Shown here piece after piece: positions 28,812 to 52,910 of a DNA stretch of 64,000 nucleotides; positions within the stretch are counted from its first letter, which is position 1, and every line of letters begins with the position of its first letter. The translations under genes and the position numbers were made by a program. Below the pieces are notes generated by a model, which saw nothing but the letters and a program-made list of their open reading frames with translations, had not been told where the DNA came from and ran no database searches. This DNA is from a virus (Duplodnaviria; Heunggongvirae; Uroviricota; Caudoviricetes). Where the stretch lies: the IMG/VR virus record IMGVR_UViG_2541047860_000002. One strand, written 5' to 3'.

Positions 28812-28887
28812 TGGTGGCCCCTACCGGACTTGAACCGGTGACCGTGCGATTATGAGTCGCCAGCTCTAACCACTGAGCTAAAGGGCC
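28812..28887 (-). tRNA. tRNA with CAU anticodon (Ile2/Met-type, close to E. coli ileX)
   Basis: GGCCCTTTAGCTCAGTGGTTAGAGC...CTCATAA...GGTTCAAGTCC...CCA cloverleaf folded by eye. Confidence 0.8.
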
Positions 28888-28896
28888 AGATTACTG

Positions 28897-29028
28897 TTAA
28901 TTCCGCTTACGCTTTTTGCCAGGACCGCGTAAGGCTTTTGCTGCTTGCTCGACCCCATATGCAACCACCAGCAGAAATAAAAATGTCCACCAAGGGTTCT
29001 TGTCGGCAAACGTCCAAAATTCCATCAT
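28897..29028 (-). CDS. Small hydrophobic peptide (43 aa) between tRNA and plp
   Basis: MMEFWTFADKNPWWTFLFLLVVAYG... then basic tail. Confidence 0.2.
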   Translation of the reverse strand: MMEFWTFADKNPWWTFLFLLVVAYGVEQAAKALRGPGKKRKRN

Positions 29029-29041
29029 GTTATCTATTTGG

Positions 29042-29869
29042 TTATTTCACCGGAACAAACGGAACAGCGGTATTACTGGTCATATACTGCGGTAGCGTTC
29101 CGTTCCATTTGTTGATCGCTTCCAACTCCATAACGCCGGGGTTCTGGCGCAGAGCCTCACCGCGTAAACGAATGGCATCAGCTTCAGCCTGGGCTTTTGT
29201 GCGAATGGCATCGGCCTGTCCAGCAGCTTCTGCGCGCAGCATGTTGGCTTCTGCTTCGCGTTGCTTGACTTCCTGCTCGCGTTGCAGAGTTTTCTGGTTC
29301 GCCGTGACTTTGGCATTAATGCTGTCGATAACGGTTGGCGGGTACTCCGGCTTGCCCACATATGAGAGGCTCATTACCTGAATACCGATGGGCGTCATTT
29401 CTTCCTGAATGTCTTTAAGGGCTGCATCAAGCAATTCAGATTTGCCACCGTCGATAAATTTGTCGGTGGTCATTTTGCTGGCTAACCGGTTCAGAGCATC
29501 TGCAACCTTCTGGCGTAGATCGGTATCAGTAATATCATCTACACCTTTGCGATAGGTCTGAAATACCGTTGTGACTTTTGCTGGATCAACCTTGTAGGCT
29601 ACGCCGATGTGGTAACCAATGGTTGTTCCGTCGCTCATCTGGAAGCTGAACGGCTCATCGTATGTCTTCATTTGCTTAAAGGTCGGGAAGATATAAACTT
29701 CAGTATTCAAGCCTGTCCAGTAGCGACCAACGCCAACTACTTCACCGATACCTTTATCATCCCCCAGCTTATTTACTTTGATCCCTACGTTACCTGGCTC
29801 TACCCGATCGCATCCGGTCAGACATAAAGAACCAAAAATAATCGCTGCACTAATCAACGTTTTTTTCAT
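29042..29869 (-). CDS. plp: SPFH/band-7 domain lipoprotein (P1 Plp-like)
   Basis: Lipobox ...SLCLTGC; prohibitin-like core and coiled-coil tail; located inside tRNA cluster as in P1. Confidence 0.75.
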   Translation of the reverse strand: MKKTLISAAIIFGSLCLTGCDRVEPGNVGIKVNKLGDDKGIGEVVGVGRYWTGLNTEVYIFPTFKQMKTYDEPFSFQMSDGTTIGYHIGVAYKVDPAKVTTVFQTYRKGVDDITDTDLRQKVADALNRLASKMTTDKFIDGGKSELLDAALKDIQEEMTPIGIQVMSLSYVGKPEYPPTVIDSINAKVTANQKTLQREQEVKQREAEANMLRAEAAGQADAIRTKAQAEADAIRLRGEALRQNPGVMELEAINKWNGTLPQYMTSNTAVPFVPVK

Positions 29870-30086
29870 TAATCAATTTCCTGGTTTTTTCACGAAAAAA
29901 GACTACTGCAAAAGCCGGGTAAATGAGCGCGAGAAGGACTCCCAACAATACAAGTATTGTGCTGTCAGATGAGATCATATTTGGCAAAAGCCAAACATAC
30001 AGAACCAGTGACACAATCAAACAGAGGACGACATAAATATATAACCGCACCCATAGCGTTCGACATTTGTTCGGATTGTTCTGCAT
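29850..30086 (-). CDS. Small membrane protein upstream of plp
   Basis: 78-aa ORF with two hydrophobic helices. Confidence 0.45.
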   Translation of the reverse strand: MQNNPNKCRTLWVRLYIYVVLCLIVSLVLYVWLLPNMISSDSTILVLLGVLLALIYPAFAVVFFREKTRKLINEKNVD

Positions 30087-30349
30087 CCTCTCACTCCATT
30101 ATTTACCGAATAAAAAAGCTGCGGTGCCTGGTGCCTCCAGGTGACGTTAACCAGTTAACAATTAACGCCGGGATGTTTGACTTAACCACTAAGGAGGATT
30201 GTTTTAACTGTTCCGCGTGCGCTTAGCCGCATTCACCGCAATGGTAAGAGCACTTGGCTGGCTGGGCGGCGATGACGCCTGTACGCATTTGGTGATCCGG
30301 TTCTGCTTCCGGCATTCGCTTAATTAGCCAAATACTCTTAACGTTGCAC

Positions 30350-30436
30350 TGGCGGAGAGTAATGGAATCGAACCATCATCGCTTGCGCAATGGGACGGTT
30401 TTCAAGACCGCTTGAGCACCATGCTCCCTACTCTCC
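30350..30436 (-). tRNA. tRNA-Ser-like (UGA anticodon, long variable arm, atypical short D-loop)
   Basis: Perfect 7-bp acceptor stem, anticodon loop CTTGAAA, T-arm GATGG-TTCGATT-CCATT, CCA encoded. Confidence 0.55.
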
Positions 30437-30533
30437 AGTGATTGTGATGGTCGGTGCTGAACTCCGACACAGGGTTGTAGCAAGCCCCGCAAAGCGCGCA
30501 CTACTGTAGTTGCGGCACATCAGCCTGTGCATT

Positions 30534-30633
30534 CACCACAATGTTGAGAACACTGGTTGTCACGCTGCAACGCAACATTTATTCATAGATTGGGATATGA
30601 CCCCGTTACGCCAGTGTTCTCAACGTTGTGGTG
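30534..30633. repeat. 23-bp inverted repeat (CACCACAATGTTGAGAACACTGG / rc) with 54-nt loop; related copies at ~30233 and ~30765
   Basis: 22/23 match between 30534-30556 and rc of 30611-30633. Confidence 0.6.
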
Positions 30634-30838
30634 CCGGTTACGGTTCCGGCCAGGCCTCTTCCTCAACGGGGTGTTCTCCATACGGACTACCGTTTATTGG
30701 TCGTTCCTGCGGTTTATGTTGTGAAGCCAGATGCTTATCTTCTGGTTGCTTCAAAGAGCTGCACTTCATCACAACGGTAAGAGCACTCGATGCATTTAAG
30801 CCAAGCCCCATAAGGGAGAATGCCCTTACCTGTTGTGT

Positions 30839-30914
30839 TGGTGCCGGTTAACGGACTCGAACCGCTGACATCCTGCTTACAAGGCAGGCGCTCTACCAAC
30901 TGAGCTAAACCGGC
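30839..30914 (-). tRNA. tRNA-Thr (UGU)
   Basis: GCCGGTTTAGCTCAGTTGGTAGAGC...CTTGTAA...GGTTCGAGTCC...CCA. Confidence 0.85.
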
Positions 30915-30918
30915 AATT

Positions 30919-31005
30919 TGGTGGGGAGTGATGGAGTCGAACCACCCGAGTCGCAATGACAGTAGATTTACAGTCTACCCCGCTACCCCTACGGACTAAC
31001 TCCCC
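30919..31005 (-). tRNA. tRNA-Tyr (GUA), type II
   Basis: GGGGAGT acceptor, anticodon loop CTGTAAA, long variable arm, GGTTCGACTCC T-loop, CCA. Confidence 0.85.
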
Positions 31006-31010
31006 TAAAT

Positions 31011-31087
31011 TGGCGATGGTGGGTGGATTCGAACCACCGACCGACAGCTTAGAAGGCTGCTGCTCTATCCTACTGAGCTACACCATC
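31011..31087 (-). tRNA. tRNA-Arg (UCU)
   Basis: GATGGTG acceptor, GCTCAGTAGGATAGAGC D-arm, anticodon loop CTTCTAA, GGTTCGAATCC, CCA. Confidence 0.8.
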
Positions 31088-32303: not shown

Positions 32304-32327
32304 TTTTAGATTTCTAACACATTATTT
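32304..32327 (-). promoter_or_regulatory. Operator-like motif (rc TGTGTTAGAAATCTAAAA, copy f) ahead of the noncoding leader and tRNA operon
   Basis: Overlaps stop of ORF 32322-33530; upstream (minus strand) of the tRNA cluster. Confidence 0.4.
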
Positions 32328-33530
32328 CCCATAAAGATCTTCTACACCCCCATTCTTCTTATCCCATTCGTTCGCCCATACCCGGCAAGCGTCAATGATT
32401 TCCTGACGACGATCTCCTTGCATGAACGGGATGCTTTCATGGAAACAGCTTGGAATGCAGGCCACACTGAATACAGTATCAAACTCCGTCTGCTTGATTG
32501 CCTCCAGCGTCTCCGGACGCATTTTTAATTCATCGATTGGCGCATCCTTAGAGTCCATAATCCGGCGATATAAGCGCGGAAAATCCGTCTCCAGGTACGC
32601 CATAATTTTATCTGCGAGACATTCGTCTATGTCGGTATTCCAGTCCTTTTCGAAGCCCGGCAGGCGATAGTAAAGCGGCGTTCCCCATACCGATGGGATC
32701 ACATCCATCGTTAACAGGCGATTGGTTCTGATTTGTTGATGGTAATTAGCCGTCAACAGTGCTTCGCCACGCTGCCCTGTTTCCGCAACCAGGCCGTGCG
32801 GATACTCATGGATGTAGGCAATGGCATCCCTTCCATCATACATGAGTGGAAATGTCTCTGGTCTTTGTCCCATGCCACAAGCACGGTTCAGATCGTGACC
32901 AAGCTGTGAGCACTCTCGCTTTAATGTTTCGATAATGCTCTGCGCTGTAGCCAACTTTTTACGCAGTGTGACGCCTTCGCCTTGATAATCAATGCATTGC
33001 TGATTGAGCTTGGTTAAACGCTCTTTTAGTTCCCTGCGCTCTCTTTTCAGCGTGCGGTTATCCTTCTCCGCAACATCCAGCCGCTTTGTCAGGCTTGGCG
33101 GATAGTCTTTTTTGTAACGGTTCAAATCGGCTTCGGCAGATTTACGCAGTGTATTTGCCTGTTCAAGACGCGCTTCCAGATTGCCGATCTCATTACGCAT
33201 ATTCGCGGCAAATTGATTAACTGCATCACCTAGGCTTTCAACTGTCGCTGATACGCCTGTGACTTGTGAAAAACGGATCAAGCCATCATTAACGGCTTGT
33301 TGGTATTCCTCAAACTGATCCACCAGCTTATTGTAATCAACTGCCCCATCATCAAGCAGCTTGTTGATTTCCGCCACCAGGTTATCTGTAGTGGCAATGA
33401 CACTCTCGTGCAGTCGCTTTGACAGGTCATCACCCGGATTCCGTTTCTGTATAAGAGCGATTTGTGTGCGCAGCGTTTCAATTGCTGTCGAGATAATTTC
33501 CAGATTAGAAGTATCAGTGTGTTGACTCAT
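32322..33530 (-). CDS. Hypothetical protein (probable ATG start 33530)
   Basis: ~400-aa ORF preceded by operator copy g. Confidence 0.5.
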   Translation of the reverse strand: MSQHTDTSNLEIISTAIETLRTQIALIQKRNPGDDLSKRLHESVIATTDNLVAEINKLLDDGAVDYNKLVDQFEEYQQAVNDGLIRFSQVTGVSATVESLGDAVNQFAANMRNEIGNLEARLEQANTLRKSAEADLNRYKKDYPPSLTKRLDVAEKDNRTLKRERRELKERLTKLNQQCIDYQGEGVTLRKKLATAQSIIETLKRECSQLGHDLNRACGMGQRPETFPLMYDGRDAIAYIHEYPHGLVAETGQRGEALLTANYHQQIRTNRLLTMDVIPSVWGTPLYYRLPGFEKDWNTDIDECLADKIMAYLETDFPRLYRRIMDSKDAPIDELKMRPETLEAIKQTEFDTVFSVACIPSCFHESIPFMQGDRRQEIIDACRVWANEWDKKNGGVEDLYGK

Positions 33531-33552
33531 TGCTGTTCCCGTCACTTTGTTA

Positions 33553-34154: not shown

Positions 34155-34617
34155 TTAATCAAGACAAACATACTCCGTGATAGCTTTTATGGCTTCAGCG
34201 GCACTGCGCGCCTCAAAGCAGTAGTAACCGGCTTCAGTGAGGCGGGTCATCCAGACGAGTTGTTCGGGAGTCAGGCGATTTCTCCCATGTTTCATCTCAA
34301 TGCGCATTCCGTGGTATCCCCCCACAAGCAAGGTCTATAGAAAGATCGGGATATCCCTTCTTTTGGCCCTCTGCCACCATTTTTATTGCCGTCCTTATGC
34401 CTCGCAGGCCACCGTTTGGAGTGGCGTGAGTATGCTCATACACATAACGCATATTGCGATACAACCAGTCCAGGACGCGAACCTGCTCGTAATGCTCATG
34501 GTTCCTTTTGATTAGATCTGGGTTTTTCTCCAGTTCTCTAAGAGCTGCGGCATGTGGGGATGTTTCAGAATATTCACTGCGACGCCTTCTCTTTCGCGCT
34601 ATTTTTCTAACACACAT
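34155..34617 (-). pseudogene. VRR-NUC domain nuclease gene interrupted by a frameshift at a C6 tract (34318-34323)
   Basis: N-part ...GYPDLSIDLACGG then, in the adjacent frame, YHGMRIEMKHGRNRLTPEQLVW... completes the PD..(I)E(M)K nuclease core. Confidence 0.6.
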
Positions 34618-34620
34618 ATT
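34604..34620 (-). promoter_or_regulatory. Operator-like motif (rc TGTGTGTTAGAAAA, copy h) overlapping the VRR-NUC start
   Basis: Overlaps ATG 34615-34617. Confidence 0.4.
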
Positions 34621-34786
34621 GATAGTAAATATGCGAAATAATAACAACAACGTTAGATTTATAAAACAAGAGAGATACTACTCAAGGATGGTCTATATGC
34701 AACAGGTCGGATTTGCTTTTAGAGTAAAGAGTGACCTTAATCAACAAGGAGGGTAAATCGCATGGCATTTACCCAACCTGTTATTT

Positions 34787-35047
34787 TTAAAGGGTTATTT
34801 TATCCTGTTCGGATAATTCTTTGATTGTCTTGTCGATTGCGATCAACCAACCTTCATAGGTTAAATCATCAACAAGTTCTACCAACTTATCATCGGTGTG
34901 AGGAAAGTATACCCAGCTCCAGTTCGCGGGGTTTTCTGCTTTTCGCAGCGTAAAAACCTTCTTGTATCGGTGGAACTCAAGGACATACCCCTTCGATATG
35001 GAATATTCCTTTAGGTCTTCGACCGTAAACCTACGATTCTTTCGCAT
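34787..35047 (-). CDS. Hypothetical protein downstream of darB
   Basis: 86-aa ORF. Confidence 0.4.
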   Translation of the reverse strand: MRKNRRFTVEDLKEYSISKGYVLEFHRYKKVFTLRKAENPANWSWVYFPHTDDKLVELVDDLTYEGWLIAIDKTIKELSEQDKITL

Positions 35048-35049
35048 GG

Positions 35050-35484
35050 CTACCCCATGATTCGATATTTCTCTATAGACTCGTCGTAACTTGTGTACAC
35101 GTATGGCTCTGTATCATCGGCATAAGGTGCGACTTCCAGAGCATGAACAGGATTGTATACCGCGTCATTTTCCAGGCGATCGCTCGAATACAGATGCCCA
35201 GCCAAAACCGTAAGCGCCGGGCGACTCATTTTGTAGATCTCTGCCACATCACTATCTACAACTTGTCCAAATGATATGTCGCCGCGCTCCAGCAATAACG
35301 TTTTAAGCGCAGGCCACCACGGCCCATAAAGGTGATAAAGCTGTGGATCTCGTTTCAGCCTTTCCACCATGCCATTCAGATATGCATCCAGAAACGCCTC
35401 TTCACTCCTGCCATTGAGCGCCTGCGGCAAAATGTCCTCAAGGTAGGATTCCGTCGGTTTTACAGTGTCAATTAGTGTCGTCAT
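35050..35484 (-). CDS. Hypothetical protein downstream of darB
   Basis: 144-aa ORF. Confidence 0.4.
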   Translation of the reverse strand: MTTLIDTVKPTESYLEDILPQALNGRSEEAFLDAYLNGMVERLKRDPQLYHLYGPWWPALKTLLLERGDISFGQVVDSDVAEIYKMSRPALTVLAGHLYSSDRLENDAVYNPVHALEVAPYADDTEPYVYTSYDESIEKYRIMG

Positions 35485-35520: not shown

Positions 35521-38500
35521 TTAAGCCGCATCGGCGATTATTTTACGCAGTTCATCTACCGAGTAACGCGTAGATACCATCCACGCCGGACGGTCAAAGT
35601 CCACATCCGCGACAGGATTCACTTCAAAATTCCAGAAACGCCCGCCAATCTTCTTAATCGCGTCTTTGGCGTTCCGTATTGTCGAGGAACCTGGTTGGTC
35701 GGCAATGAGATAAACCGCGCCAACGTCCTCGCTGACGCTCCACCAGCGCCCGCGAACACGCGCCTTAGCGCGAATAGGCTTATCATTAACCACAATGATA
35801 TAGTCATCATTTGCCGCTTCATCAGCTCTGGCTTCAGCCACTGCCGCCTGCTCTTCTCTTTTGCTTTCAGCCTGCTCAAGCCTTTCCGCGATCTCTGATT
35901 CAGTGGCCCCGCCGTTTTTCAGCGATACATAGTCCTGCCACGTTGCCGATTTGAGCGTATCCGGCAACTCATTCACATAGTCGCCATCTTTCAACTCACG
36001 GGCGCGGCGGGTAGCCATTTCTACCAGGCGATTAACAGAAACAGCATCAGCAAAATCGTCCTTACTAATGTGTTTTTCATCAAATGCATTGATGACAGCC
36101 CCCACCTTAATCCACTGTGCTGCCGGTGATTCCAGGGGGTTATCAGCCTGGACAATGGCGAGTTTCGCTCCATCTACCCCATTATTCGCCAACTGTTCCA
36201 GCGCCGCCCATCCATCTGCATCACTGAGTGATTTATATTGCTCAAACAATGCATCGCGCCAGGCCACCAGCGCAGAACGTGTTTTTTCGATCTTCGCCTT
36301 AATTTTCGCGATCTTGACCTGATTAAACATCCGTTCAATATCATCGATATTGCTAAAGGCTTTCATCCTGCCCTGGAATAAACGGTATGCCAGCACGGTC
36401 CTCCAGAATGATTCCAGACCTTCTCCGGACGGTTTACGGAACAAGCTAAGAATATCTTCAGAAGTGACTTTATTAAGCGAACGACCTGACAGACCACGCC
36501 CAGCCATCCAGTTTTCGAACTCCTTGGCAACATCATCCATCGTTGCCTGTGCGCCCCATGCCTGCATTCCCTGGATGTAATCATACCCATACAATGCCTG
36601 GAGGAATCCCTCTCCGTCCACGATATTCAGCGGGTTATCACTGGCTTGTATTTTTGCCACTTCACGCTTCAGCGCCTCGTCGTTGCCATCAGGATATATC
36701 CATCGTTCAGGTGCTATATCCGATGCTCGCCCGATTTTTTGGCCTATCACGCCATCATAGGTCGATGACAGCGCGATCTGCCCATCATCTGTGCGATAGG
36801 CCCAGTATTTAATAGCTGATCCACCGCCCCATGCATTACCAGGTTTACCAGCAATAACATTCATTACCCCATTGCGAATAGCATCATAGAACTGATCGCG
36901 AGTAAGTATTGTTGATAGCTGGTGGCACTGAACACCACGCGCAGCCGTTGCGCGCGATTCAGCAACCCCCTCTTCAAAAGTTACCGCTTCAATCACAGAG
37001 TCAAACGGCAATGTAACGATTGACCCCGGTGATCGAGCGTAACGACTTGCTCTATCCAGCCAGGCGATACGACAGATGTATTGTGCTTTTTCACCGTCAA
37101 TTTTTTCCACCCGGACAATCGCTGTTGTTTCGCGATCATCAATGACTGCACGGTAATAACTACCTTTATGCAACAGGATATTCTTGTCAGTGCGCATATA
37201 TTCCTGTGGGTTCTGAATAACATCGATACTGATATCCAGCACACCAGACTTAATAGCGCGCTCCACATCACCACGAGAGCGTTTCATTATGGTATCCGCG
37301 TCTTTTGCCCTGGTGATCGCAAACCGCAGCACCCGCGCACGTTTTCTGTAGCTACTCAACTGCTCAAGCGCGTATTTTTGCCCATTCCTGTTCGTACCCG
37401 CTTTTATCAGGTCGTCAAGATTGCGCTGGTAATACTCTATCTGTTCCATCGCGCTTTTCAGTTCTGTCTCCATCATGCCGATATCTTTTCCGGCGGCGTT
37501 TGCCGCTTTCAGGTAGATATCGAGAGCATTGTTGGCCTCGCGCTGTGCTTTCAGTTTCAGACGTTCTTCACGCTCTTGCGCCTGGCGAGCCATGATTGCG
37601 CGGCGTTCTTCCGGGTTTGCCGCCAGCATAATGGCGCGTTCATCAGCATCATCCACATCACCATTGGCGATCTCTGACATGTCGGAGGTCATCACCATCT
37701 TGATCCAGTCTTTCTTACGTTTCAGCGTATCCAGACGGAAGTCGTCGAATGTGCCTTTGCCACAATAGTAGTGAACATTGACCTTCTCTTGCGGTGAACC
37801 TACGCGCGCACCGCGCCCATTTCGTTGGTCGATACTGGCTGGTGTCCAGGGTAGTGTCAGGTGGTGGATATCGGTTGTCCCGATGTGCAGGTTAATACCT
37901 ACTTCAGCCTTCTTGTTACAGATTATGATGCGCGTGCGACCTTCGTTATAGTCGGCGGCAATACCTTCCATGCCCTCAAGGCCAGCATCATTTTTAGCTG
38001 AGAGATAATCCTCATATTGGGCAAGTTTGCTGTAGTAGGTTTCCCATGCCCCTTCTTTGTATTCACCGTTTTTGTTTGGAGTAGGTTCGGTCGGCTTATT
38101 CACCTTCTTCAGCTTGATGCCGCCAGCCTGGCTAACTGTCGTCGCATTGATAATGCCAATCTCCTGCTCCGGCATTTGCAGTGCACTGGCGATAATACGG
38201 CGCAGCTTCTGGTGCTGGGCTTTTTCATCAATAAAGACGATCTGCTTACCGTTCTTCAGACCTTCACGAAGATTTTCGATCAGCGCGGCATACTTCGGCG
38301 GGATGGGGTGCGATACCTGCTGCATATCAATACCGGCAGCCGCAATGGCCTTCAGTATTTCAGCTTCCAGTTCAATGCTGGCACGTATTTCAACATGCGT
38401 CGGATGTTCACTAAAAGCGGTCTTCACTACCTTGCTGGTACGCGTACTGACCAGCCCGCCAGCGCCGTCTTCCTCGGCCTCATCAACATCATCTGCCACT

Positions 38501-41500
38501 TTACCACCAGCTACTTTTGGCAAGGCATCAGCAATAGCTTTTACCTGGTCTGCAAGCTCAACGGGGAACTGGAATGTAATCGCACTGGCATACAGATCCG
38601 GGTCTATAGCAACCTTGTCCATGTCACGGATGATGGAGAAGATGAAATCATCCGGTTTGTCGTTAGTGATATGCCCGTTTTCATCGACTGTCAGCTCATC
38701 ATTGCGACTTAACTCCTGAGCACGCTTACGAAGTTCTTCATAAGCAGACTCCTGCTCCCCTGTCATCGGGATCTGCAAGGTGTTCTCGATGATGTCGGGA
38801 ATTTTAACCGTCGCTCCGACATCTGCGGCAGTCTTCAGAGTGGTCCAACGATGGAAAATACCACGCAGGCCATCAAGGTTCTGGAAGCCCACCAGCCCCT
38901 GCTTCTCTTCCACTTCCCCGGAAATTTTCTGGACCTGAACTGTGGCTGTTTTGCCAAACACACGAACGAAATCATCAGGCGTAATGATGCCCATGCGCAT
39001 CCACTCTTCCTGCGGAATGACAGTAGACAGCATGTTGAAGGCATCAATCGGACTGTTCACCAGCGGAGTTGCCGTCAGCATGACTACACCACGTCCGTTG
39101 TTGCGTTTCATCATGTACGCAGCTTTTACAGCCATGTCGCGGGCCATCTTGGATACTGCCGGGTTAGGCAAATATGCCAGTTGTCCCGCTTCACGCCCGG
39201 CATTAAAGGAGTTGCGGTAGTTATGCCCCTCGTCGGCAATCACGCTATCGAAGTTCATATCCTCAAAGTACGGGATATTCTGCTTCTTCGTTGTACCGGT
39301 ATTCGCGGCCTGATCCTTAATCTTGTTCTTCTTCTGTGCATCACGGTGTTTGCCAGACGCCAGGTCAAGACGCCCCATTTCCACAGCATTAAAGACAGCT
39401 TGCTGTGAGTTCTCCTCGATGGTTTTTTCTCGTAGCGGGATAGACGCGAATTGTTCTTTTGTCATGATGACCGTTCGCCAATTTGACGACGGGATCATGT
39501 TCATGCGCTGAACGATAACGGCGCTGGCGGACTCTTTCACAACATTTCTGGTAAGAGGCTGCCCGTTACTGTCGAGGCGTGGTTCGCCATTTTCATCAAG
39601 CACCGGCGCGGTCAGAATATTTCCGCTGTCATCACGAACTTCATCCAAACCGATAAACATCATATTGGCGAAGGCATCAGCACTGTAGAAACTCTGTGCC
39701 TCGTGATACCAGTTCTGATAAACCGCCTTCGGAACAACAATACACGTGCGTTTAGTGCGACCTGTTTCGAAGTTATACGCCTCAAGCGCAAGCGCGGTCG
39801 TGGTTTTACCCAGCCCGGTACCAAATCCCATGATGCCGCGCCCATCTTCTGACAAGCGACGAACTTCTTCATTTTGATAAGTCAGAGGAATGCGCTTTCC
39901 ACTAATCCCTTCCAGGCCAAGCGGTGCGTTAGAGTGCGTGAACGGAATGAAGCCATTGAATGCGTCGTTATAGTCACGGGCTATCTGATCCGCCTGCGGG
40001 TGGGTGCGTAACCAGTCGTTAAAGCTAACTTCCAGTTGAGCAATTTTATCCAGGTACTCGTTAGCGTTCTGCCCACGCGGTTTAACACCGTTCAGGTAGT
40101 TTTCTAACTGGTTCAGGAAGCCGTCTTTATTGTTGGCCTTCTTGAACTCATTCCCGTTTTTGCCGTTTACGGTTCGTAGCTGATAGCCGGTAAATACCCC
40201 GTCCTTACCTTCGTAATCGTCCGGAGATACCAGAATGCCATCGACGACCTTCAGATCAGGTTCAGTGTACTTAAACTCGTCATAGCCCTGCTCTGCCAGG
40301 AACTCTTTTATCAAGCGGCGATCCAGCCAGCGGGCATTCAGATTAACGGTGACTTTATTTAGTGGCGTGAAAATGCGTTTCTCTTCGATTTTCGCCAACT
40401 GACGCTCAAAGTTCGCTTTCTGCTCACCTGTTGACGCATCACGCCAGCCCACCAGCAATGCTGTTTTGGTTGCAATATCGCCGCTGGTGGCGCGGTCCAT
40501 CGGCAGCAGGCAGCCATACCCATCAATAGCGATATCATCAAATTTCGCTAGGTATTCAAGGGCCGCGTCGTCGTCCTCTGGCAATTCACCAGCAAACGCC
40601 TCACGAAAGTCGCCCAGCGTTATAGGATTAAGGGCTACATCACTGAAAAGATGTGCTATCACTTGTTCAGGACGTGTAAAGTCAATACCGGCAGCACCAT
40701 CCGTTACATCAAGTCGCCCTGCCAGAAGGTCAGAAGTGGAACCATCCTGTTTCACATTGCCAGTGAACGTCATCCAGTTTTTAGCGCCAGCTTCAGCAAG
40801 CCCATTCAGCTTAATCGCGTGCGGTGGTCCATACTTCGCAACTTCTGCTGCCGCCAGGCGGGATGCATCTGCCAGTTTGTCATCAACGTTCACCCCCAGG
40901 TTACGCAAATCAAGTGCCTTGTTGATCAACTGCCCTATCAGCGCACCGCGCATAACGCGCTCTCTGTCTTTTTCTCGCTGCTTGCCAGCAAAGCGAATCA
41001 TTGCTGCCACTTCATCACTGACAACCGATGGATAGTCGGACGCGATCGCCGATATCTGGTCCCATGACAAAGCCAGAATCCCGTTTGTTGACTGGAACGC
41101 GATCTGCAGATCGCCAAACGTCGAAACACCATATCGACTTACATCAAGCGCGGAGGATTTGGTTGTCGTGTCCTTAACCCATTTCAGGCCATCAAACTCA
41201 TGCCAGATACCGCCTACAAGGCGTTTATCGCCCACTTTCGCGCCCTGCCATGCCTGAGTAGTTACGCCGAGCAAATCCCAATTGATGCGACTATCAAAGC
41301 GACGAGATAGCGCGGTTTTCATCGACTCATTGGATACACGGCCGTCTTTTTTCACCACTAGGGTATTGCGGAAGCTGGTACGTTCCATGTCGCCGTAAAC
41401 AAACCGCTTCCCTTCGGTTGTAAACCATTTTCCTTTGAGGAAGGTATCCCAAAGGACGTTTGCCGATTTGAGCGTGGCATCATCCGTGTCGGGGATCATC

Positions 41501-42357
41501 TCCAGGAAGGTTTCCGGGTGTTTACGCAATACCCATACGTCCACCACGGTATCTGTACCGGATTCGCTGAACGTACCAGAAGGCATACGATGTGCGGCCA
41601 AAAATTCCGCTTTACGGCTGACTTTATCGCGCAATTTTTTGTATTTCGTACCATCGGTCATGCCATTCGGCACCACCAATACGATAAGCCCACCAGGCTT
41701 AACCTTGTCGATCGTGCGCAACACAAAATAATTGCCAACGTTCTTCTCGTTTGCATATGCCGGATCAAGCCCGGCAACGCCGGAACGCCCTTCACCAAAC
41801 GGTACGTTACCAACAGCGTGGTCATACATTGCATCTTTCGCCGCCAGCGCCTCAAACGCCCCGATATTCACATCGTCTTCCGGGTGCAAAAGCTGGTTTA
41901 TTCGACCAGAAATCGGAGACAGTTCGGCGCTGGTCATTATCATGCCCTGCCGTTTTGTCTCCTGGAAAATACCTGTGCCCGCTGATGGTTCCAGTACGTG
42001 CCCGCCATCAATACCGTAGTCAGCAAACAGATCCCATATACCTTCAGCCATAAACTGTGGCGTGTAGTATTCGTATTGGCTGCCCTCACCATCTGTCAGG
42101 CCGCCTTCACCGGTATACCCGGCAAGAATCTGACGTTGTTCGTCAGTTAATTTCGCCCCATCGAAGCCGGGCGGAAGGGAATTAAGAAGATTTACTGCGG
42201 CGTTGTTTGCTGCACGGCGTGTTTTCTGAATACTGACGCCATCGGCTTTCCTGACGCCAAAGGTCGCAACAGCACGTAATTTATGCAACCGACTAACAAT
42301 TTCAATCAGTTCGCCTAAGCTGGAGGCTTCACTGATTGAATGAAGTAATTTGTCCAA
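35521..42357 (-). CDS. darB: DarB-like giant N6-adenine methyltransferase + SF2 helicase (capsid-packaged antirestriction protein)
   Basis: 2278 aa; MTase motifs (EPSAGTG, GNVPFG); helicase motifs GFGTGLGKTT, DEGHNYRN, LTATPLVNS, QRNGRGARVGS. Confidence 0.85.
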   Translation of the reverse strand: MDKLLHSISEASSLGELIEIVSRLHKLRAVATFGVRKADGVSIQKTRRAANNAAVNLLNSLPPGFDGAKLTDEQRQILAGYTGEGGLTDGEGSQYEYYTPQFMAEGIWDLFADYGIDGGHVLEPSAGTGIFQETKRQGMIMTSAELSPISGRINQLLHPEDDVNIGAFEALAAKDAMYDHAVGNVPFGEGRSGVAGLDPAYANEKNVGNYFVLRTIDKVKPGGLIVLVVPNGMTDGTKYKKLRDKVSRKAEFLAAHRMPSGTFSESGTDTVVDVWVLRKHPETFLEMIPDTDDATLKSANVLWDTFLKGKWFTTEGKRFVYGDMERTSFRNTLVVKKDGRVSNESMKTALSRRFDSRINWDLLGVTTQAWQGAKVGDKRLVGGIWHEFDGLKWVKDTTTKSSALDVSRYGVSTFGDLQIAFQSTNGILALSWDQISAIASDYPSVVSDEVAAMIRFAGKQREKDRERVMRGALIGQLINKALDLRNLGVNVDDKLADASRLAAAEVAKYGPPHAIKLNGLAEAGAKNWMTFTGNVKQDGSTSDLLAGRLDVTDGAAGIDFTRPEQVIAHLFSDVALNPITLGDFREAFAGELPEDDDAALEYLAKFDDIAIDGYGCLLPMDRATSGDIATKTALLVGWRDASTGEQKANFERQLAKIEEKRIFTPLNKVTVNLNARWLDRRLIKEFLAEQGYDEFKYTEPDLKVVDGILVSPDDYEGKDGVFTGYQLRTVNGKNGNEFKKANNKDGFLNQLENYLNGVKPRGQNANEYLDKIAQLEVSFNDWLRTHPQADQIARDYNDAFNGFIPFTHSNAPLGLEGISGKRIPLTYQNEEVRRLSEDGRGIMGFGTGLGKTTTALALEAYNFETGRTKRTCIVVPKAVYQNWYHEAQSFYSADAFANMMFIGLDEVRDDSGNILTAPVLDENGEPRLDSNGQPLTRNVVKESASAVIVQRMNMIPSSNWRTVIMTKEQFASIPLREKTIEENSQQAVFNAVEMGRLDLASGKHRDAQKKNKIKDQAANTGTTKKQNIPYFEDMNFDSVIADEGHNYRNSFNAGREAGQLAYLPNPAVSKMARDMAVKAAYMMKRNNGRGVVMLTATPLVNSPIDAFNMLSTVIPQEEWMRMGIITPDDFVRVFGKTATVQVQKISGEVEEKQGLVGFQNLDGLRGIFHRWTTLKTAADVGATVKIPDIIENTLQIPMTGEQESAYEELRKRAQELSRNDELTVDENGHITNDKPDDFIFSIIRDMDKVAIDPDLYASAITFQFPVELADQVKAIADALPKVAGGKVADDVDEAEEDGAGGLVSTRTSKVVKTAFSEHPTHVEIRASIELEAEILKAIAAAGIDMQQVSHPIPPKYAALIENLREGLKNGKQIVFIDEKAQHQKLRRIIASALQMPEQEIGIINATTVSQAGGIKLKKVNKPTEPTPNKNGEYKEGAWETYYSKLAQYEDYLSAKNDAGLEGMEGIAADYNEGRTRIIICNKKAEVGINLHIGTTDIHHLTLPWTPASIDQRNGRGARVGSPQEKVNVHYYCGKGTFDDFRLDTLKRKKDWIKMVMTSDMSEIANGDVDDADERAIMLAANPEERRAIMARQAQEREERLKLKAQREANNALDIYLKAANAAGKDIGMMETELKSAMEQIEYYQRNLDDLIKAGTNRNGQKYALEQLSSYRKRARVLRFAITRAKDADTIMKRSRGDVERAIKSGVLDISIDVIQNPQEYMRTDKNILLHKGSYYRAVIDDRETTAIVRVEKIDGEKAQYICRIAWLDRASRYARSPGSIVTLPFDSVIEAVTFEEGVAESRATAARGVQCHQLSTILTRDQFYDAIRNGVMNVIAGKPGNAWGGGSAIKYWAYRTDDGQIALSSTYDGVIGQKIGRASDIAPERWIYPDGNDEALKREVAKIQASDNPLNIVDGEGFLQALYGYDYIQGMQAWGAQATMDDVAKEFENWMAGRGLSGRSLNKVTSEDILSLFRKPSGEGLESFWRTVLAYRLFQGRMKAFSNIDDIERMFNQVKIAKIKAKIEKTRSALVAWRDALFEQYKSLSDADGWAALEQLANNGVDGAKLAIVQADNPLESPAAQWIKVGAVINAFDEKHISKDDFADAVSVNRLVEMATRRARELKDGDYVNELPDTLKSATWQDYVSLKNGGATESEIAERLEQAESKREEQAAVAEARADEAANDDYIIVVNDKPIRAKARVRGRWWSVSEDVGAVYLIADQPGSSTIRNAKDAIKKIGGRFWNFEVNPVADVDFDRPAWMVSTRYSVDELRKIIADAA

Positions 42358-42507
42358 AGGATTTCCCCCTCTAAACCGTAAAAATTCCGCTATGCGGTAC
42401 GGTTGAGAGGGTATGGAGAATGTTATTTTCAGGGGGACGATACTACCGTCAAAATCACATACTCCCCATAGTTTGCCTACTTATTAACCCATGACCGGGA
42501 GAAAAAT

Positions 42508-42993
42508 ATGGCAAACATTGAACCTCGCTGGCTAATTGAAGCCCGTAAGCACATTGGCCTGACTGAAATAAAAGGCGCTAAACACAACCCTGAAATCGTT
42601 CAGTTCTGGCGCGACATCAAGCGCGGCGGAATTAAAGACGATGAAACGCCGTGGTGCGCAGCATTTGTCGGTGCAATGCTGGAACGTGTAGGCATCCGCT
42701 CAACAAGATTTGAGTCGGCAAAATCCTATCTGGATTGGGGCGAGAAATTAGATACACCGGCATACGGATGTATCGTTGTATTTACCCGCGTAGGCGGTGG
42801 GCACGTAGGCTTCGTTGTCGGACGCCGCGCCAATGGCGATCTGCTTGTCTTGGGTGGGAACCAGGGGGATGCGGTTAATATTCGCGCATTCCCAACATCA
42901 AGAGTGTCAGGCTATCGCTGGCCTGCTGGCGAACCACGCAATACCGCTCTGTTACCAGTCGGAGACGCAGCAACCTCAACTAATGAGGCATGA
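42508..42993 (+). CDS. CHAP/NlpC-P60-like peptidoglycan hydrolase (phage TIGR02594-like)
   Basis: Catalytic Cys (PWCAAFVG) and His (GGGHVGFVV) context. Confidence 0.55.
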   Translation: MANIEPRWLIEARKHIGLTEIKGAKHNPEIVQFWRDIKRGGIKDDETPWCAAFVGAMLERVGIRSTRFESAKSYLDWGEKLDTPAYGCIVVFTRVGGGHVGFVVGRRANGDLLVLGGNQGDAVNIRAFPTSRVSGYRWPAGEPRNTALLPVGDAATSTNEA

Positions 42994-43025
42994 AAAAAGC
43001 CCCGGCCAGGCCGGGGCATCACGCT

Positions 43026-48426: not shown

Positions 48427-48490
48427 GAATCACCGCAAATTGTTTCCAGTTTTGCGGCAGCATAATCAGTATGTGATTTCAGCGGTTGGT

Positions 48491-49888
48491 TTAGTTTTCC
48501 GTACGGCAATTATTTAGAACTGTAGAATTTTCAAACATAGCAAAGTTCAGACCTTTCCCTTCGCCAAATTCACCCTCAATTTCATCAGATACAGCAGACA
48601 AAATACAACGCAGATCAACATCGCCACCGCCGAACATATCGCCCAATGCCTGTTGTTTATGAGTCAGCTCGTCGTTGATTTTTTGCGCCATTTTTTTGAA
48701 TGCTGCCCCCATACGCTTCGCACTGCGATTATTTGCTACGATGAATAGCGCCAATGCCTCAGCTTCCGGTGTACTGTCGCCGAATAACCCCCTTTGGGCG
48801 ATCACTTCTTCAACGGCCTGACCGTTGTCTTTGGCTTCACGTACAAGATTAATTGCTTCCTGGAGTGCTGCTATCGCCTGTGTATCCAGGCCATTAACCT
48901 GCTCTATACCGTCCACTAAGCCTGTTACTGCGTCATGGTGAGCGTCGCCAGACAGCGACTGCATTTGCGCAAAATCGCTGGCTGCCGTATTTAATGCGGT
49001 CAGGATATTACGCATTTCCGGATCTGGCTCTTCCGACACCAGCCGAACAAGCCTTTCATCCTTGTACGCTTTGGCAAAAATTGCATTCTGGATGCGATCG
49101 ATAAGCTGTTTCGTGGGACGCCCATCGGCAGTAAGCAAGCCTGCCGTCGCTGTATCGCCAATTTCGCACAAAAACGCACGAATAAACGCATCATTGGACC
49201 GCGCCAGCAGATTTCCATCATCTGAAGGATTAAATAGCGCCATGACGCTCTCAGTGAGAAATTGCGCATCCGCATACGCTTTTTCACTTGCTGCCATCTC
49301 TTGCAGATCGCTAATGTTTGAATCGCGGGCAAATTGAGCGCGGTCTACATCTGTGAGTCTTTCTCGCACCAGTACGGGCATAGACATTTGCGAAATTTCG
49401 TCAGGATTCAGACCAAACTCTTTCGCATGGTCGATCAGGTACTGGCGATACTCATCCGCCTGTCCTTGCTCATAGGCACGCCAGATACCCATACTCCTTC
49501 CGTTGCCGGATTCAACAACGTTGTCCGGACCAACTATCGGCGCTCCGTGGCTGCTCATACCGGAATCCGTTAATTGTGCCGGGCGTAAATTGGAGGCAAT
49601 ACGGTTAACCTGGAGTTTGCTGGATAGCCGGGTACGATCTCGTGGTTGGAGTTCTTCCGGGAAGGCCGGGTTAATCGTACCGTCAAGGTTGTTCGAAATG
49701 ATCAGACTGCTGGCATCAACGACCTTAAAAGCCGTCTTTACCTCTGCACCTTTGCTGGTGACTACGTAGCTACTTCGCCCCAAGCGTGTTTCTTTCCTCT
49801 CTAATGAAGAAACCAGAGCAATGACGCTGTTAATATCTGTGGCCCCGGAAAGCGCAGAAGTAACTGATTTGTTCAAAATACACTCCAA
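48491..49888 (-). CDS. Hypothetical virion-associated protein (Ddr-like position)
   Basis: 465-aa ORF downstream of DarA-like gene. Confidence 0.3.
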   Translation of the reverse strand: MECILNKSVTSALSGATDINSVIALVSSLERKETRLGRSSYVVTSKGAEVKTAFKVVDASSLIISNNLDGTINPAFPEELQPRDRTRLSSKLQVNRIASNLRPAQLTDSGMSSHGAPIVGPDNVVESGNGRSMGIWRAYEQGQADEYRQYLIDHAKEFGLNPDEISQMSMPVLVRERLTDVDRAQFARDSNISDLQEMAASEKAYADAQFLTESVMALFNPSDDGNLLARSNDAFIRAFLCEIGDTATAGLLTADGRPTKQLIDRIQNAIFAKAYKDERLVRLVSEEPDPEMRNILTALNTAASDFAQMQSLSGDAHHDAVTGLVDGIEQVNGLDTQAIAALQEAINLVREAKDNGQAVEEVIAQRGLFGDSTPEAEALALFIVANNRSAKRMGAAFKKMAQKINDELTHKQQALGDMFGGGDVDLRCILSAVSDEIEGEFGEGKGLNFAMFENSTVLNNCRTEN

Positions 49889-49970: not shown

Positions 49971-50339
49971 TTACCCGGCATAACCGTTAGCTTTCACCCA
50001 GCTTATGGTCTGCTCTTTAGCCTGCTCCAACGTAAGGAACTCGCCAACATAGTTTGAGATCCCACGCAGCGCATCAATAAATTCCATTTGTGTGGACTTT
50101 GTGAACACACCGCCCAGGAAGTCAGTCACTATCTTAGGGACTTCATCTACAACAGGATCAGCCTGTTGTTGCGGTTCCGCTGCCGGTTGCGCGGCAGTCC
50201 CCAGGCCCAATTTCAGCATCACATCAACAATCTGCTTACCAATGGTGACGCGTTGCAATACTGGCGCAGTTTTCTGCGCCTGCATTAGATCTGATAGCTC
50301 TTTACCTAATTTCAGGCGGTCTAAAACAGAGATGGTCAT
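49971..50339 (-). CDS. Small protein (DdrA-like position, ~13 kDa)
   Basis: 122-aa ORF overlapping stop/start with upstream gene. Confidence 0.3.
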   Translation of the reverse strand: MTISVLDRLKLGKELSDLMQAQKTAPVLQRVTIGKQIVDVMLKLGLGTAAQPAAEPQQQADPVVDEVPKIVTDFLGGVFTKSTQMEFIDALRGISNYVGEFLTLEQAKEQTISWVKANGYAG

Positions 50340-52282
50340 TAAACACCTCCCTGCTGAATTTCAGCCAGAATATTGATCAGGTAGTCAACTGCTGCACCCA
50401 CAGTGGCTTCGTTCTCGTCGTATCGACCTGCACTGATTAGAGCGTTTGCTGCTTCCTGCACATGATCAAGTTCAGCACTGATGACCGTCAGATCGCGGGA
50501 TGTAAACTGCTCCGGCACGGATTTCAGGTACTCCAGCGCTTTATCTGCTTCCTGATCAGCTTCACTTGCTGATTCACCCGCTTCTTCTGGCTCCGACTCC
50601 TGTTCTGGTGCTGGTTGTGGTTGTGGTTGTGGTTGTGGTTGTGATTCTGGCTCAACCACATGCTCTGTTTTTACTTCGCTTGAATGATTTTGAAGGGCGT
50701 TATACACGTCCATAATGAAAAGGTTCTCCCCATCACTAAGTGGATACGCCACGTTTGGAAACGCTTTGCGGAAAAGAATTTTCACTTGCGCCTTGAATGT
50801 TTTCAGGTCACTGCCAAACAGGTCCACATAGCCATCAATATGTTTCGACATGCTGGACGCAACCAATTGGCCTGCAAAATCTTTCAGCTCATCTTCATCA
50901 GGAAGATAAAGCAACTCGTACTGGCTGACTTCTTCATCTGTCAGTTTACGGTCATACGTAATGATACCGTGACGAGCATATTCGTAATACTGATCAGCCT
51001 GGTCAGGACGATCAAGCACGGCTTTATTTCCATCCGGAACAGCACCAACACCAGCTGGGCGAGATTGAAGTGCATAGTGGTATTTACCTACATCTTGGCT
51101 CTCTGGTTGTAATACTGGGTTCGTTTCGGGGTCTGTCTGTGGTGGCTCGGAGTCTTCCAACTGGCCTGGTAACACATCAACTTTATATTTATTTGCGTTA
51201 TGCTCTCGGTAGGCTTTAAGTAATTTGGTTGCAGCATCTGCCAAACTGCCTCCTTTGACAGCACTGGCATCAATACTGAATTTACCTTCAGGTGCTACTA
51301 TCGTAACGAAATTGTCACTGCCGGACGTGACATAATTAACTTCAGCGCCATTATCCAGCACTGTTTTTCCGTCAATGGCAAGATTATGTTTTACATGTCG
51401 CAGCTGGTCACTAAACGCTCGTTCTTTCGTTTTTTCACCTTTAGCAGACAACAATTTATCGCGTTTTGCTTGTAATTCCGCGTTGATGGCTTTCTGGGCA
51501 TCAAGTTTTTTTTGCATCTCCGTAAGAGCAGCACGCTTTTCAGTCAGCCCACGTTGCGCAACGTCCACCTGATCAATCATTATTGACCGTTCTTCTGCCA
51601 GTTTATCTGCTTCATTGAGATAACTCTCAATATCTGCCTTCATTTTGTCCTGGCGCTCTTTTGCTTTCTTAAATTTTTCGCTGTTACGCTCAATCAAATT
51701 AGATAGCGCCTGACATACTTGGCTTAAAGAAACATCTCTCCCACCAATCGGGGCGACAACGTGAGTTACGTTACGCTTATTAAGTAAAAACTGAAATGCA
51801 ACAAGCTCGTCGTTACTCTTTATTTTTGCCCCATCAGCTGTTGGAGAGTGGAAAATTATGCTTGTGCTCTGCCCGTCAGTAAGCGGTATCTGCGCGGTCA
51901 AAACAGGGATATTAGCTACCCGACGTACACGACCGATAATTGCACCACCAATACAATTACGTCCATTTTCATCGGTCCCAGCTTCATCAGTCCCTGCCAT
52001 AATATTCGTACCATTCAGGCCACGATTCAGCGCACGGACGAAAGCTCGCATTGTTTGAGCTAACCGAATTCTGGTTGTAGTTATGGACTCAAACATAGCT
52101 TCGTCAGACACAACCAGAATTTCATTGCCCATATAGGCAAGCTCAATATCTTCTAAGGTCGCCGCCTCAAAAATCAGGTCATCTTCGCTTAATTCTTCTG
52201 AAGACCAGCGACTTGGCATATAGCCGGGGATCGTATCAGCAAAAGTAGACTGAATATTAATTCGTAAAGGATTGTTAATCAT
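50339..52282 (-). CDS. Large coiled-coil protein with C-terminal PQ/acidic repeats (DarA-like by size and operon context)
   Basis: ~648 aa from ATG 52282 (GGAGG 6 nt upstream); follows holin-like genes as lydA-lydB-darA does in P1. Confidence 0.35.
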   Translation of the reverse strand: MINNPLRINIQSTFADTIPGYMPSRWSSEELSEDDLIFEAATLEDIELAYMGNEILVVSDEAMFESITTTRIRLAQTMRAFVRALNRGLNGTNIMAGTDEAGTDENGRNCIGGAIIGRVRRVANIPVLTAQIPLTDGQSTSIIFHSPTADGAKIKSNDELVAFQFLLNKRNVTHVVAPIGGRDVSLSQVCQALSNLIERNSEKFKKAKERQDKMKADIESYLNEADKLAEERSIMIDQVDVAQRGLTEKRAALTEMQKKLDAQKAINAELQAKRDKLLSAKGEKTKERAFSDQLRHVKHNLAIDGKTVLDNGAEVNYVTSGSDNFVTIVAPEGKFSIDASAVKGGSLADAATKLLKAYREHNANKYKVDVLPGQLEDSEPPQTDPETNPVLQPESQDVGKYHYALQSRPAGVGAVPDGNKAVLDRPDQADQYYEYARHGIITYDRKLTDEEVSQYELLYLPDEDELKDFAGQLVASSMSKHIDGYVDLFGSDLKTFKAQVKILFRKAFPNVAYPLSDGENLFIMDVYNALQNHSSEVKTEHVVEPESQPQPQPQPQPAPEQESEPEEAGESASEADQEADKALEYLKSVPEQFTSRDLTVISAELDHVQEAANALISAGRYDENEATVGAAVDYLINILAEIQQGGV

Positions 52283-52910
52283 GCTCATCCTCCAGGCGCG
52301 CGATTTCTTCTTTAAGAGCACGTGTCTTAGCTACTTCCTGAGACAAGGCAGCTTTAACGTTACCCGTATCTTGCATTACTTTGTCTGACTTGCTCTGGAG
52401 TTTAGACAGTTTGTCGTTAGCATTAGCGATATCTTCACGGAGTGCATCACGTGATTCTTTCGCTTCAGCTAATTTCTGAGCGTTAGATTTAACTCCCTGC
52501 CGCTTCTTATTTCCGTCATCAATATTTTTTGCTGCACGAGCAAGTTTTCGAGCTAATGACTTCTGGAAAGAAGTTGCTCCGCGATTAAATAAAGCCGCAA
52601 GAGATTGCCCCAAAGCCGACATTGTTTTTACTGGCTTGAACGGTACTGTTTTACCATTCAGTTTGATCCCAGATATATCACCGGTATCGTTAACCTGAAC
52701 TTCCATTGTCTGTTCATCAATACCAATAAGAGTAAACGTGCGCGTCATGATCCCATCTTTCTTCCTGCCATTACTTACAGGGATCACCCTCGCTATCTTG
52801 TAACCACCTTTGCTGATTTCTTTGACGAGTTTTGCCAGCCCCTTTTCGTTTAATTCAGCATAATTAAGAAGAACATAATTATTCTTATTTGACATCCCAG
52901 TCTCCTTCAC
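52275..52910 (-). CDS. Hypothetical K/A-rich coiled-coil protein
   Basis: 211-aa ORF. Confidence 0.35.
   Translation of the reverse strand: MKETGMSNKNNYVLLNYAELNEKGLAKLVKEISKGGYKIARVIPVSNGRKKDGIMTRTFTLIGIDEQTMEVQVNDTGDISGIKLNGKTVPFKPVKTMSALGQSLAALFNRGATSFQKSLARKLARAAKNIDDGNKKRQGVKSNAQKLAEAKESRDALREDIANANDKLSKLQSKSDKVMQDTGNVKAALSQEVAKTRALKEEIARLEDEHD

Follow-up and report, generated by a model that had tools for sequence, protein, structure and literature searches.

What does a tailed virus do with a single 6.8-kb gene that fuses a DNA methyltransferase to a helicase? Such a gene occupies positions 35521–42357, minus strand, of a 64,000-nucleotide stretch of DNA—all of it called the window here—from the Caudoviricetes record IMGVR_UViG_2541047860_000002. 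Judged by its sequence, the window belongs to an E. coli phage-plasmid that is D6-like and related to P1, and the gene is an intact orthologue of P1 darB, the giant methyltransferase-helicase gene. Its product of 2278 amino acids (aa) very probably has the role that DarB has in P1: our analysis points to a packaged protein that counters restriction in cis. The identification is already known, since the phage D6 gene is annotated as darB-like; public records for D6 and for about a hundred phage-plasmids of enterobacteria already cover the gene, the genes around it and the homology with P1 darB. What is modestly new is that the C-terminal third of the protein is restricted to this family, is an orphan in fold and is mosaic; that a companion protein, DdrB, is of half length; and that a different gene stands third in line.

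The gene and its product

The reading frame runs uninterrupted from 42357 to 35521, 2278 codons beginning with TTG, in the open reading frame (ORF) listing and its translation, just where the initial annotation of this DNA had placed it. A Shine-Dalgarno sequence, GAGGGGG, lies ~7 nt 5′ of the TTG, and the same start is given in the GenBank record of D6 and in RefSeq plasmid annotations. By megablast against phage genomes, the gene matches D6_15 of Escherichia phage D6, a P1-related plasmid prophage (GenBank MF356679; Gilcrease & Casjens 2018, as cited in PMC10879196), along its entire length with 98.5% nucleotide identity, and the proteins are 99% identical. The GenBank annotation of D6_15 reads ‘defense against restriction; similar to P1 gene darB’, and the protein family phrog_1685 matches over the full length. 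Plasmid records that cover at least 80% of darB number 113, with a top identity of 99.4% (pE2863-2, from a bovine E. coli); nearly all are ~90 kb non-mobilizable replicons, from E. coli, Salmonella and Shigella.

Homology to P1 DarB extends from residue 1 to the end. BLASTP aligns the two proteins over 2370 columns, with 1513 bits and 40% identity; global alignment with MAFFT gives 39.6%, with all 50-residue blocks aligned. The DarB proteins of P1 and P7 resemble that of the window in size (2255 versus 2278 aa), in their collinear architecture and in their catalytic motifs, and in each case the gene ulx lies directly downstream. Over residues 1–1935 identity to P1 DarB is 43%, and it varies greatly by region: 32% in the first 50 residues, ~50–68% in the methyltransferase, 26–50% ahead of the helicase, 44–76% in the two helicase lobes and just 12–28% beyond residue 1550. 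The ORF had been read initially as an N6-adenine methyltransferase-like N-terminus joined to a complete SF2 helicase core, in the manner of P1 DarB. The Pfam domain search and the motifs confirm both parts, and full-length collinear homology with identical catalytic motifs supports the likeness to P1 DarB.

Residues 1–90 (42088–42357) comprise the presumed capsid-targeting N-terminus and a helical region that resembles LPD36 and includes a GxG(G/A/S) motif, as judged by alignment and by an AlphaFold2 model in which helices span residues 2–10, 14–24 and 43–60. The LPD36 region and its GxGU motif were described by Iyer et al. 2017 (PMC5512222). We aligned 40 homologues of 36–96% identity, a set that needed the full-length query, for the C-terminal fragment alone returned close fragments only. 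In the segment GYTGEGG (residues 80–86) of the LPD36-like region, Y81, G83, G85 and G86 are invariant in 40/40 homologues.

The core of a gamma-class N6-adenine DNA methyltransferase follows in residues 91–300 (41458–42087), assigned by Pfam, motifs and Foldseek. The Pfam N6_Mtase match (residues 152–282) scores 21.2 bits, marginally over the cut-off of 20.4. The motifs YYTP97 (the ‘TP cap’), LEPSAGTG122 (S-adenosylmethionine binding) and NVPF184 (catalytic) are identical in P1 DarB, and Y97-Y98-T99-P100, E123, P124, G129, N184, P186 and F187 are invariant in every one of the 40 homologues. We searched an AlphaFold2 model of residues 1–830, with a mean confidence (predicted local distance difference test, pLDDT) of 83.4, against the PDB with Foldseek. 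The core matched HsdM (V. vulnificus 7eew and 3ufb; M.EcoKI 2ar0), M.TaqI, BsaXI, PacII, BseCI and CamA, at E 5e-8 to 1e-5 and over ~200–300 columns, which is to say the catalytic core only. Type I HsdM and M.TaqI are the closest in structure; the closest solved structures, M.EcoKI 2ar0 and V. vulnificus 7eew, are 13–16% identical to it, and 7eew is also matched by sequence (E 4e-4). Unlike HsdM, DarB of the window has no HsdS or HsdR partner, its methyltransferase is fused to an SNF2 motor, and in P1 it is a virion protein.

Between methyltransferase and helicase lies a stretch with no assigned family, residues 301–815 (39913–41457), 37–44% identical to P1-type DarB. Residues 301–830, searched alone, gave no Pfam match at E ≤ 1, and nothing like the target-recognition domain (TRD) of TaqI was found for residues 300–815 among the PDB fold matches, though the region is modeled confidently. 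Residues 816–1550 (37708–39912) then form a SWI2/SNF2-type SF2 helicase or translocase, with Pfam matches to SNF2-rel_dom (residues 840–964; 47.3 bits, cut-off 24.9), Helicase_C (residues 1464–1520; 24.3 bits, cut-off 23.5) and ResIII, and with helicase motifs I, II (DEGH), III and VI. Here GTGLGKT846 (Walker A), DEGH1042, TATP1095 and QRNGRGARVG1511 are identical in P1 DarB. The lobes, 59–70% identical to those of P1 DarB, are parted by an insert at about residues 1221–1440. The same dyad characterizes the ‘polyvalent proteins’ (PMC5512222), which share with DarB of the window an LPD36-like N-terminus, an EcoKI/TaqI-like adenine methyltransferase with its TP cap and the motif NxP(F/Y), and a SWI2/SNF2 ATPase.

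The protein is well guarded by selection. The ratio of nonsynonymous to synonymous divergence (dN/dS) was estimated by the Nei-Gojobori method against two alleles, from an E. coli TUM1586 plasmid (dS ~0.23–0.38) and a Shigella dysenteriae plasmid (dS ~1.0–1.3). It is 0.04–0.05 for residues 1–1550, with 0.01–0.08 in the methyltransferase segment, and 0.12–0.14 for residues 1551–2278. The whole of DarB is under purifying selection, and its C-terminal third is ~3 times less constrained.

The C-terminal third

Residues 1551–2278 (35521–37707) are specific to the family and evolve fast, as structure prediction, HMMER and dN/dS indicate. An AlphaFold2 model of residues 1550–2278 (pLDDT 85.4) comprises three long helices, a beta-rich domain, a helical region and a small terminal alpha/beta domain; there were no Pfam matches and no significant fold match in the PDB. 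When 1.84 billion representative proteins were searched exhaustively with HMMER, this third turned up in just 38 clusters, and all 38 are DarB-sized proteins matched at the equivalent C-terminal position, or fragments thereof. The P1 cluster is 55–70% identical in the enzymatic cores versus 15–21% in the C-terminal third, and the last 340 residues have a marginal collinear match to P1 DarB at the extreme C-terminus only (E 0.001). Bcep22-like, Ralstonia, Thermus and other phages encode ‘DarB-like antirestriction’ proteins that have the dyad alone in common with DarB, at 25–33% identity over residues ~70–1600; these carry other domains instead, and lack the C-terminal third of P1 and D6.

Among closer alleles, the divergence is patchy. 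One of them, P0014, is 97–100% identical in each 40-residue block as far as residue 1560, and falls to as low as 45% after ~residue 1640; in another, P0013, identity of 65–70% is confined to residues 1721–1800. Such divergent patches between near-identical alleles are sharply bounded, and occur mainly in residues ~1640–1800 and 1840–2120. Synonymous divergence is raised within them and varies by segment, which indicates that the C-terminal third is shaped by mosaic recombination. Positive selection was also considered and is ruled out on average, the dN/dS of 0.12–0.14 being relaxed yet purifying.

Might the C-terminal third be an exchangeable specificity module, one that chooses which host defenses—type I families, for example, or BREX—are neutralized? 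We consider this doubtful, because co-evolution with the diverged partners inside the head (DarA, Hdf and Ulx) accounts equally well for the features on which the idea draws: family restriction, confidently modeled domains without a counterpart, rapid evolution and exchange in patches. If it were true, the anti-defense spectrum of D6-type DarB would differ from that of P1 DarB.

Mode of action

In P1, DarB does not work alone, and the window appears from sequence to hold the whole P1 Dar gene set, with DdrB at half length. As in P1 and P7, the other four Dar genes lie in one operon, lydA-lydB-hdf-darA-ddrA-ddrB, with hdf-darA-ddrA-ddrB coming after lydA-lydB; all four are on the minus strand. 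The hdf homologue (52275–52910) is 39% identical to P1 Hdf and matches Pfam DarA_N; its true start may differ from the one listed, the D6 gene being 206 aa. The darA homologue (50339–52321), 38% identical to P1 DarA, matches Pfam DarA_N and DarA_C and scores 1133 bits with NCBIfam anti_RE_DarA (cut-off 350); its true start is probably ~15 codons inside the listed ORF. The ddrA homologue (49971–50339) is 33% identical to P1 DdrA (E 9e-22). The ddrB homologue (48491–49888; 465 aa versus 995 aa in P1) is 64% identical to residues 2–442 only of P1 DdrB and matches Pfam ddrB-ParB (E 3e-42): it is the ParB-like N-terminal half. The absent C-terminal half, a ‘possible metallopeptidase’ in the P1 annotation, is absent in D6 too. 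DdrB of an Aeromonas relative is 1212 aa. The orthologue of ulx (35050–35484; 144 aa) lies directly 3′ of darB on the same strand, as in P1; it is 46% identical to P1 Ulx (E 7e-45) and matches phrog_1629, ‘Ulx-like anti-restriction’ (E 2e-59).

Because these partner genes are present, both catalytic centers are invariant and purifying selection is strong, we infer for DarB of the window the same life history as for P1 DarB. Mass spectrometry of P1 virions has revealed DarB in them, and its first 30 aa are all that a reporter needs to reach the capsid (PMC9024508); the number of copies is estimated at ~40 per head. The Dar proteins of P1 are incorporated in order and ejected together (PMC12810830), their protection acts in cis only (PMC12707154), and DarB, Ulx and DdrB have been tied to protection against EcoB and EcoK (PMC12810830, PMC12707154).

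By homology with P1, then, the 250-kDa protein would be synthesized in the lytic phase, and its first ~30 residues would direct it into the procapsid, after the entry of Hdf/DarA, DdrA and DdrB and with the aid of Ulx. Some tens of copies would ride inside the head, to be ejected with the DNA. DarB would act solely on the DNA delivered with it, guarding this against type I restriction of the EcoKI/EcoBI type. The SNF2 motor would translocate along the entering double-stranded DNA and, in the course of this, the HsdM/TaqI-like domain might methylate adenines, the motor might displace restriction complexes, or both might occur. The C-terminal third may mediate protein contacts, either with partners in the head interior or with targets in the host. 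Type I sites are not depleted in the window—there are 7 EcoKI sites versus 9.2 expected, and 14 EcoBI sites versus 10.9—so site avoidance is not how the element escapes, and a dependence on protection by a protein would fit this.

Several points weigh against so close a parallel with P1. The presumed capsid-targeting N-terminus has diverged: only 8 of its first 30 residues (~27%) are identical to P1 DarB by hand count of the BLASTP alignment, N-terminal identity to P1 is ~27–32% in all, and none of residues 2–33 is invariant among the 40 homologues; the P1 targeting sequence itself has no known consensus. P1 DarB residues 6–10, MGVFR, align with HSISE in the window protein. In P1, DdrB aids the incorporation of DarB, and here it is of half length. 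A P1-type late promoter (AAGTKAYT-N5-TANNNT, a pattern drawn from LPlyz, LPpro and LPdar) was not found 5′ of darB, the sole match in the window being at 2729. The biochemical mechanism of DarB, that of P1 included, has been explicitly termed undefined (PMC11109961). The antirestriction conferred by plasmid-borne darB proved to be a DNA artefact that depends on Chi and EcoKI sites and requires neither the protein nor its catalytic residues (PMC11109961), and so it lends a catalytic mechanism no support. We found no experiments on the D6 lineage in the literature.

How would a packaged DarB protect? The coupling of translocation to methylation, such that the SNF2 motor carries the adenine methylase along the entering duplex, was proposed by Iyer et al. 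(PMC5512222); we hold it tentatively, at somewhat less than an even chance. Protection might instead be steric, in a protein of the same identity and role, although we think this rather unlikely. Packaged DarB, possibly with other Dar proteins, would coat or block the DNA or stall HsdR motors; methyl transfer would not be needed, and the methyltransferase fold would serve to bind DNA or bases. Motor-driven displacement without methyl transfer is included here. That protection is strictly cis fits such a mechanism, and shielding is the model of a 2025 review (PMC12707154). In its favor, too, Pfam and PDB fold searches detected neither a TRD like that of M.TaqI nor an HsdS partner, and the N6_Mtase score is marginal. 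But even homologues as distant as 36% identity keep LEPSAGTG, NVPF and the YYTP cap with little or no change, and this, together with the low dN/dS of the methyltransferase segment, would be hard to account for if there were no catalysis. Nor can some tens of molecules coat ~90 kb of DNA.

Very improbable is that DarB is no anti-defense protein, and serves instead as a defense or exclusion enzyme of the plasmid prophage, guarding the lysogen against other phages, either akin to restriction-modification (R-M) enzymes or a methylase-helicase of the DISARM, Zorya or Dpd kind. The helicase C-lobe and the motif I region are indeed locally similar to the DrmD, DpdE, ZorD and BrxHII models. But what matches in each case is a brief stretch of generic SNF2 or methyltransferase sequence, of at most 46 bits versus curated cut-offs of 500–1100: the best from NCBIfam is 46 bits, with a cut-off of 610 (DrmD), and those from PADLOC, all short helicase or methyltransferase motifs, reach 39 bits at most. 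No segment has a nuclease domain, or a TRD/HsdS specificity module, in Pfam; in P1 the orthologous protein resides in the virion head; and the gene is grouped with ulx and head-morphogenesis genes. Membership in the type I, ISP or III R-M, DISARM, Zorya, Dpd or BREX methylase-helicases was rejected, as no whole-protein model matched. Hardly credible, finally, is the idea that darB is a decaying or inactive relic carried in a prophage, for although a neighboring VRR-NUC gene is frameshifted and DdrB is shorter than in P1, the 6.8-kb frame is open, its motifs are intact, dN/dS is ~0.05–0.14 against alleles with dS up to ~1, ~113 plasmid records have the gene, and the short DdrB is common to D6, a viable phage.

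Neighboring genes and the comparison with P1

Two small ORFs had been noted after darB on the same strand, and both exist. The first is ulx, which follows darB in the Aeromonas relative too (33% identity). The second (34787–35047) is an orf13-like gene of 86 aa that takes the place of P1 lxc; it matches phrog_6844, to which no function is assigned, and its homologue in an Enterobacter phage-plasmid (29% identity) likewise comes after darB-ulx. We considered whether it might encode Lxc, the C1 co-repressor, and rejected this, as it has no similarity to P1 Lxc.

Next comes a pmgM-like gene (34155–34650, minus strand), delimited by alignment with D6. It had been described as a VRR-NUC gene, which is correct by homology, since the D6 orthologue D6_12 (164 aa) matches Pfam VRR_NUC with 27 bits; in the window, however, the gene is frameshifted and its remaining ORF has no such match. 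A run of G at 34318–34323 has 6 G in the window versus 5 G in D6, pE2863-2 and the TUM1586 plasmid, and the extra G shifts the frame, leaving an ORF of 117 aa (34297–34650). Either the homopolymer was misread in sequencing or the gene has recently been inactivated by mutation.

The initial annotation needs correcting with respect to head genes, both in P1, where it had them following darB, and in the window, where it had them not following the gene. The order in P1 is darB, ulx, lxc and EcoP1I mod/res, with prt/pro upstream and divergent. In the window, as in D6, pmgR-like and pmgS-like scaffold genes lie ~1.5 kb downstream of darB, in the head-morphogenesis cluster after it; the pmgS-like gene of the window is at 32322–33545. 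Five tRNA genes lie on the minus strand at 28812–31087 (Met-CAT, Ser-TGA, Thr-TGT, Tyr-GTA and Arg-TCT); the D6 record annotates three (Asn, Thr and Ser), a difference between two elements that are otherwise ~98% identical.

Upstream, prt/pro are co-oriented with darB in the window and in D6, with repL, icd, an antirepressor gene, a small ORF and a CHAP hydrolase gene in between; in P1, prt/pro are directly divergent from darB. Enterobacter and Aeromonas phage-plasmids keep the darB-ulx pair, and upstream of it their portal and protease genes point away from darB, just as they do in P1. The CHAP-domain peptidoglycan hydrolase gene (42508–42993, plus strand) is divergent from darB, in the position held by the portal and protease genes in P1 and in the Enterobacter and Aeromonas relatives. 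Its product resembles the C-terminal end of baseplate-hub/tail-lysozyme proteins, and the gene converges on a strong GC-rich hairpin terminator (42999–43017) at the end of the icd-antirepressor operon. Farther on, at the junction between the portal gene and ddrB (48427–48490), the window is without ~1.06 kb that in D6 holds orf23 and orf24, and ddrB comes directly after the portal gene.

The 150-bp gap 5′ of darB contains a candidate sigma-70-like promoter (42425–42452, minus strand; TTGACG, a 16-nt spacer, then GAAAAT; 9/12 consensus matches), of a kind no commoner here than in shuffled sequence. A search of the window for P1 C1 operators gave one match, at chance level and far from darB. Chi sites (GCTGGTGG) number 36 in the window versus 2.1 expected, ~17-fold over, and none of 100 shuffles reached 36; seven are inside darB, at 35740, 36264, 36918, 38504, 38889, 40449 and 40483. 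P1 is likewise enriched in Chi, and the 11 Chi sites in P1 darB are the cause of the artefact seen with the plasmid-borne gene (PMC11109961).

Taken as a whole, the locus is that of D6, which it resembles in the length and start of darB and in its neighbors: the CHAP hydrolase upstream, and ulx, orf13 and the pmgM-like gene downstream. The differences from D6 are ~100 substitutions in darB, the missing orf23 and orf24, the other set of tRNA genes and the frameshift in the pmgM-like gene. From P1 and P7 it differs more deeply. Overall identity between the DarB proteins is ~40%, falling to 12–28% in the C-terminal 730 aa, and the capsid-targeting N-terminus has diverged. Unlike P1, it also has orf13 rather than lxc as the third gene, no EcoP1I mod/res downstream, a DdrB of half length, and prt/pro co-oriented behind the repL-icd-antirepressor-CHAP block.

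The D6-type allele is thus a natural second example of DarB, 40% identical to that of P1, with the catalytic residues all kept and a very different C-terminal third. The contrast between P1 and D6 is well suited to separating the enzymatic, packaging and target-specific functions of DarB.

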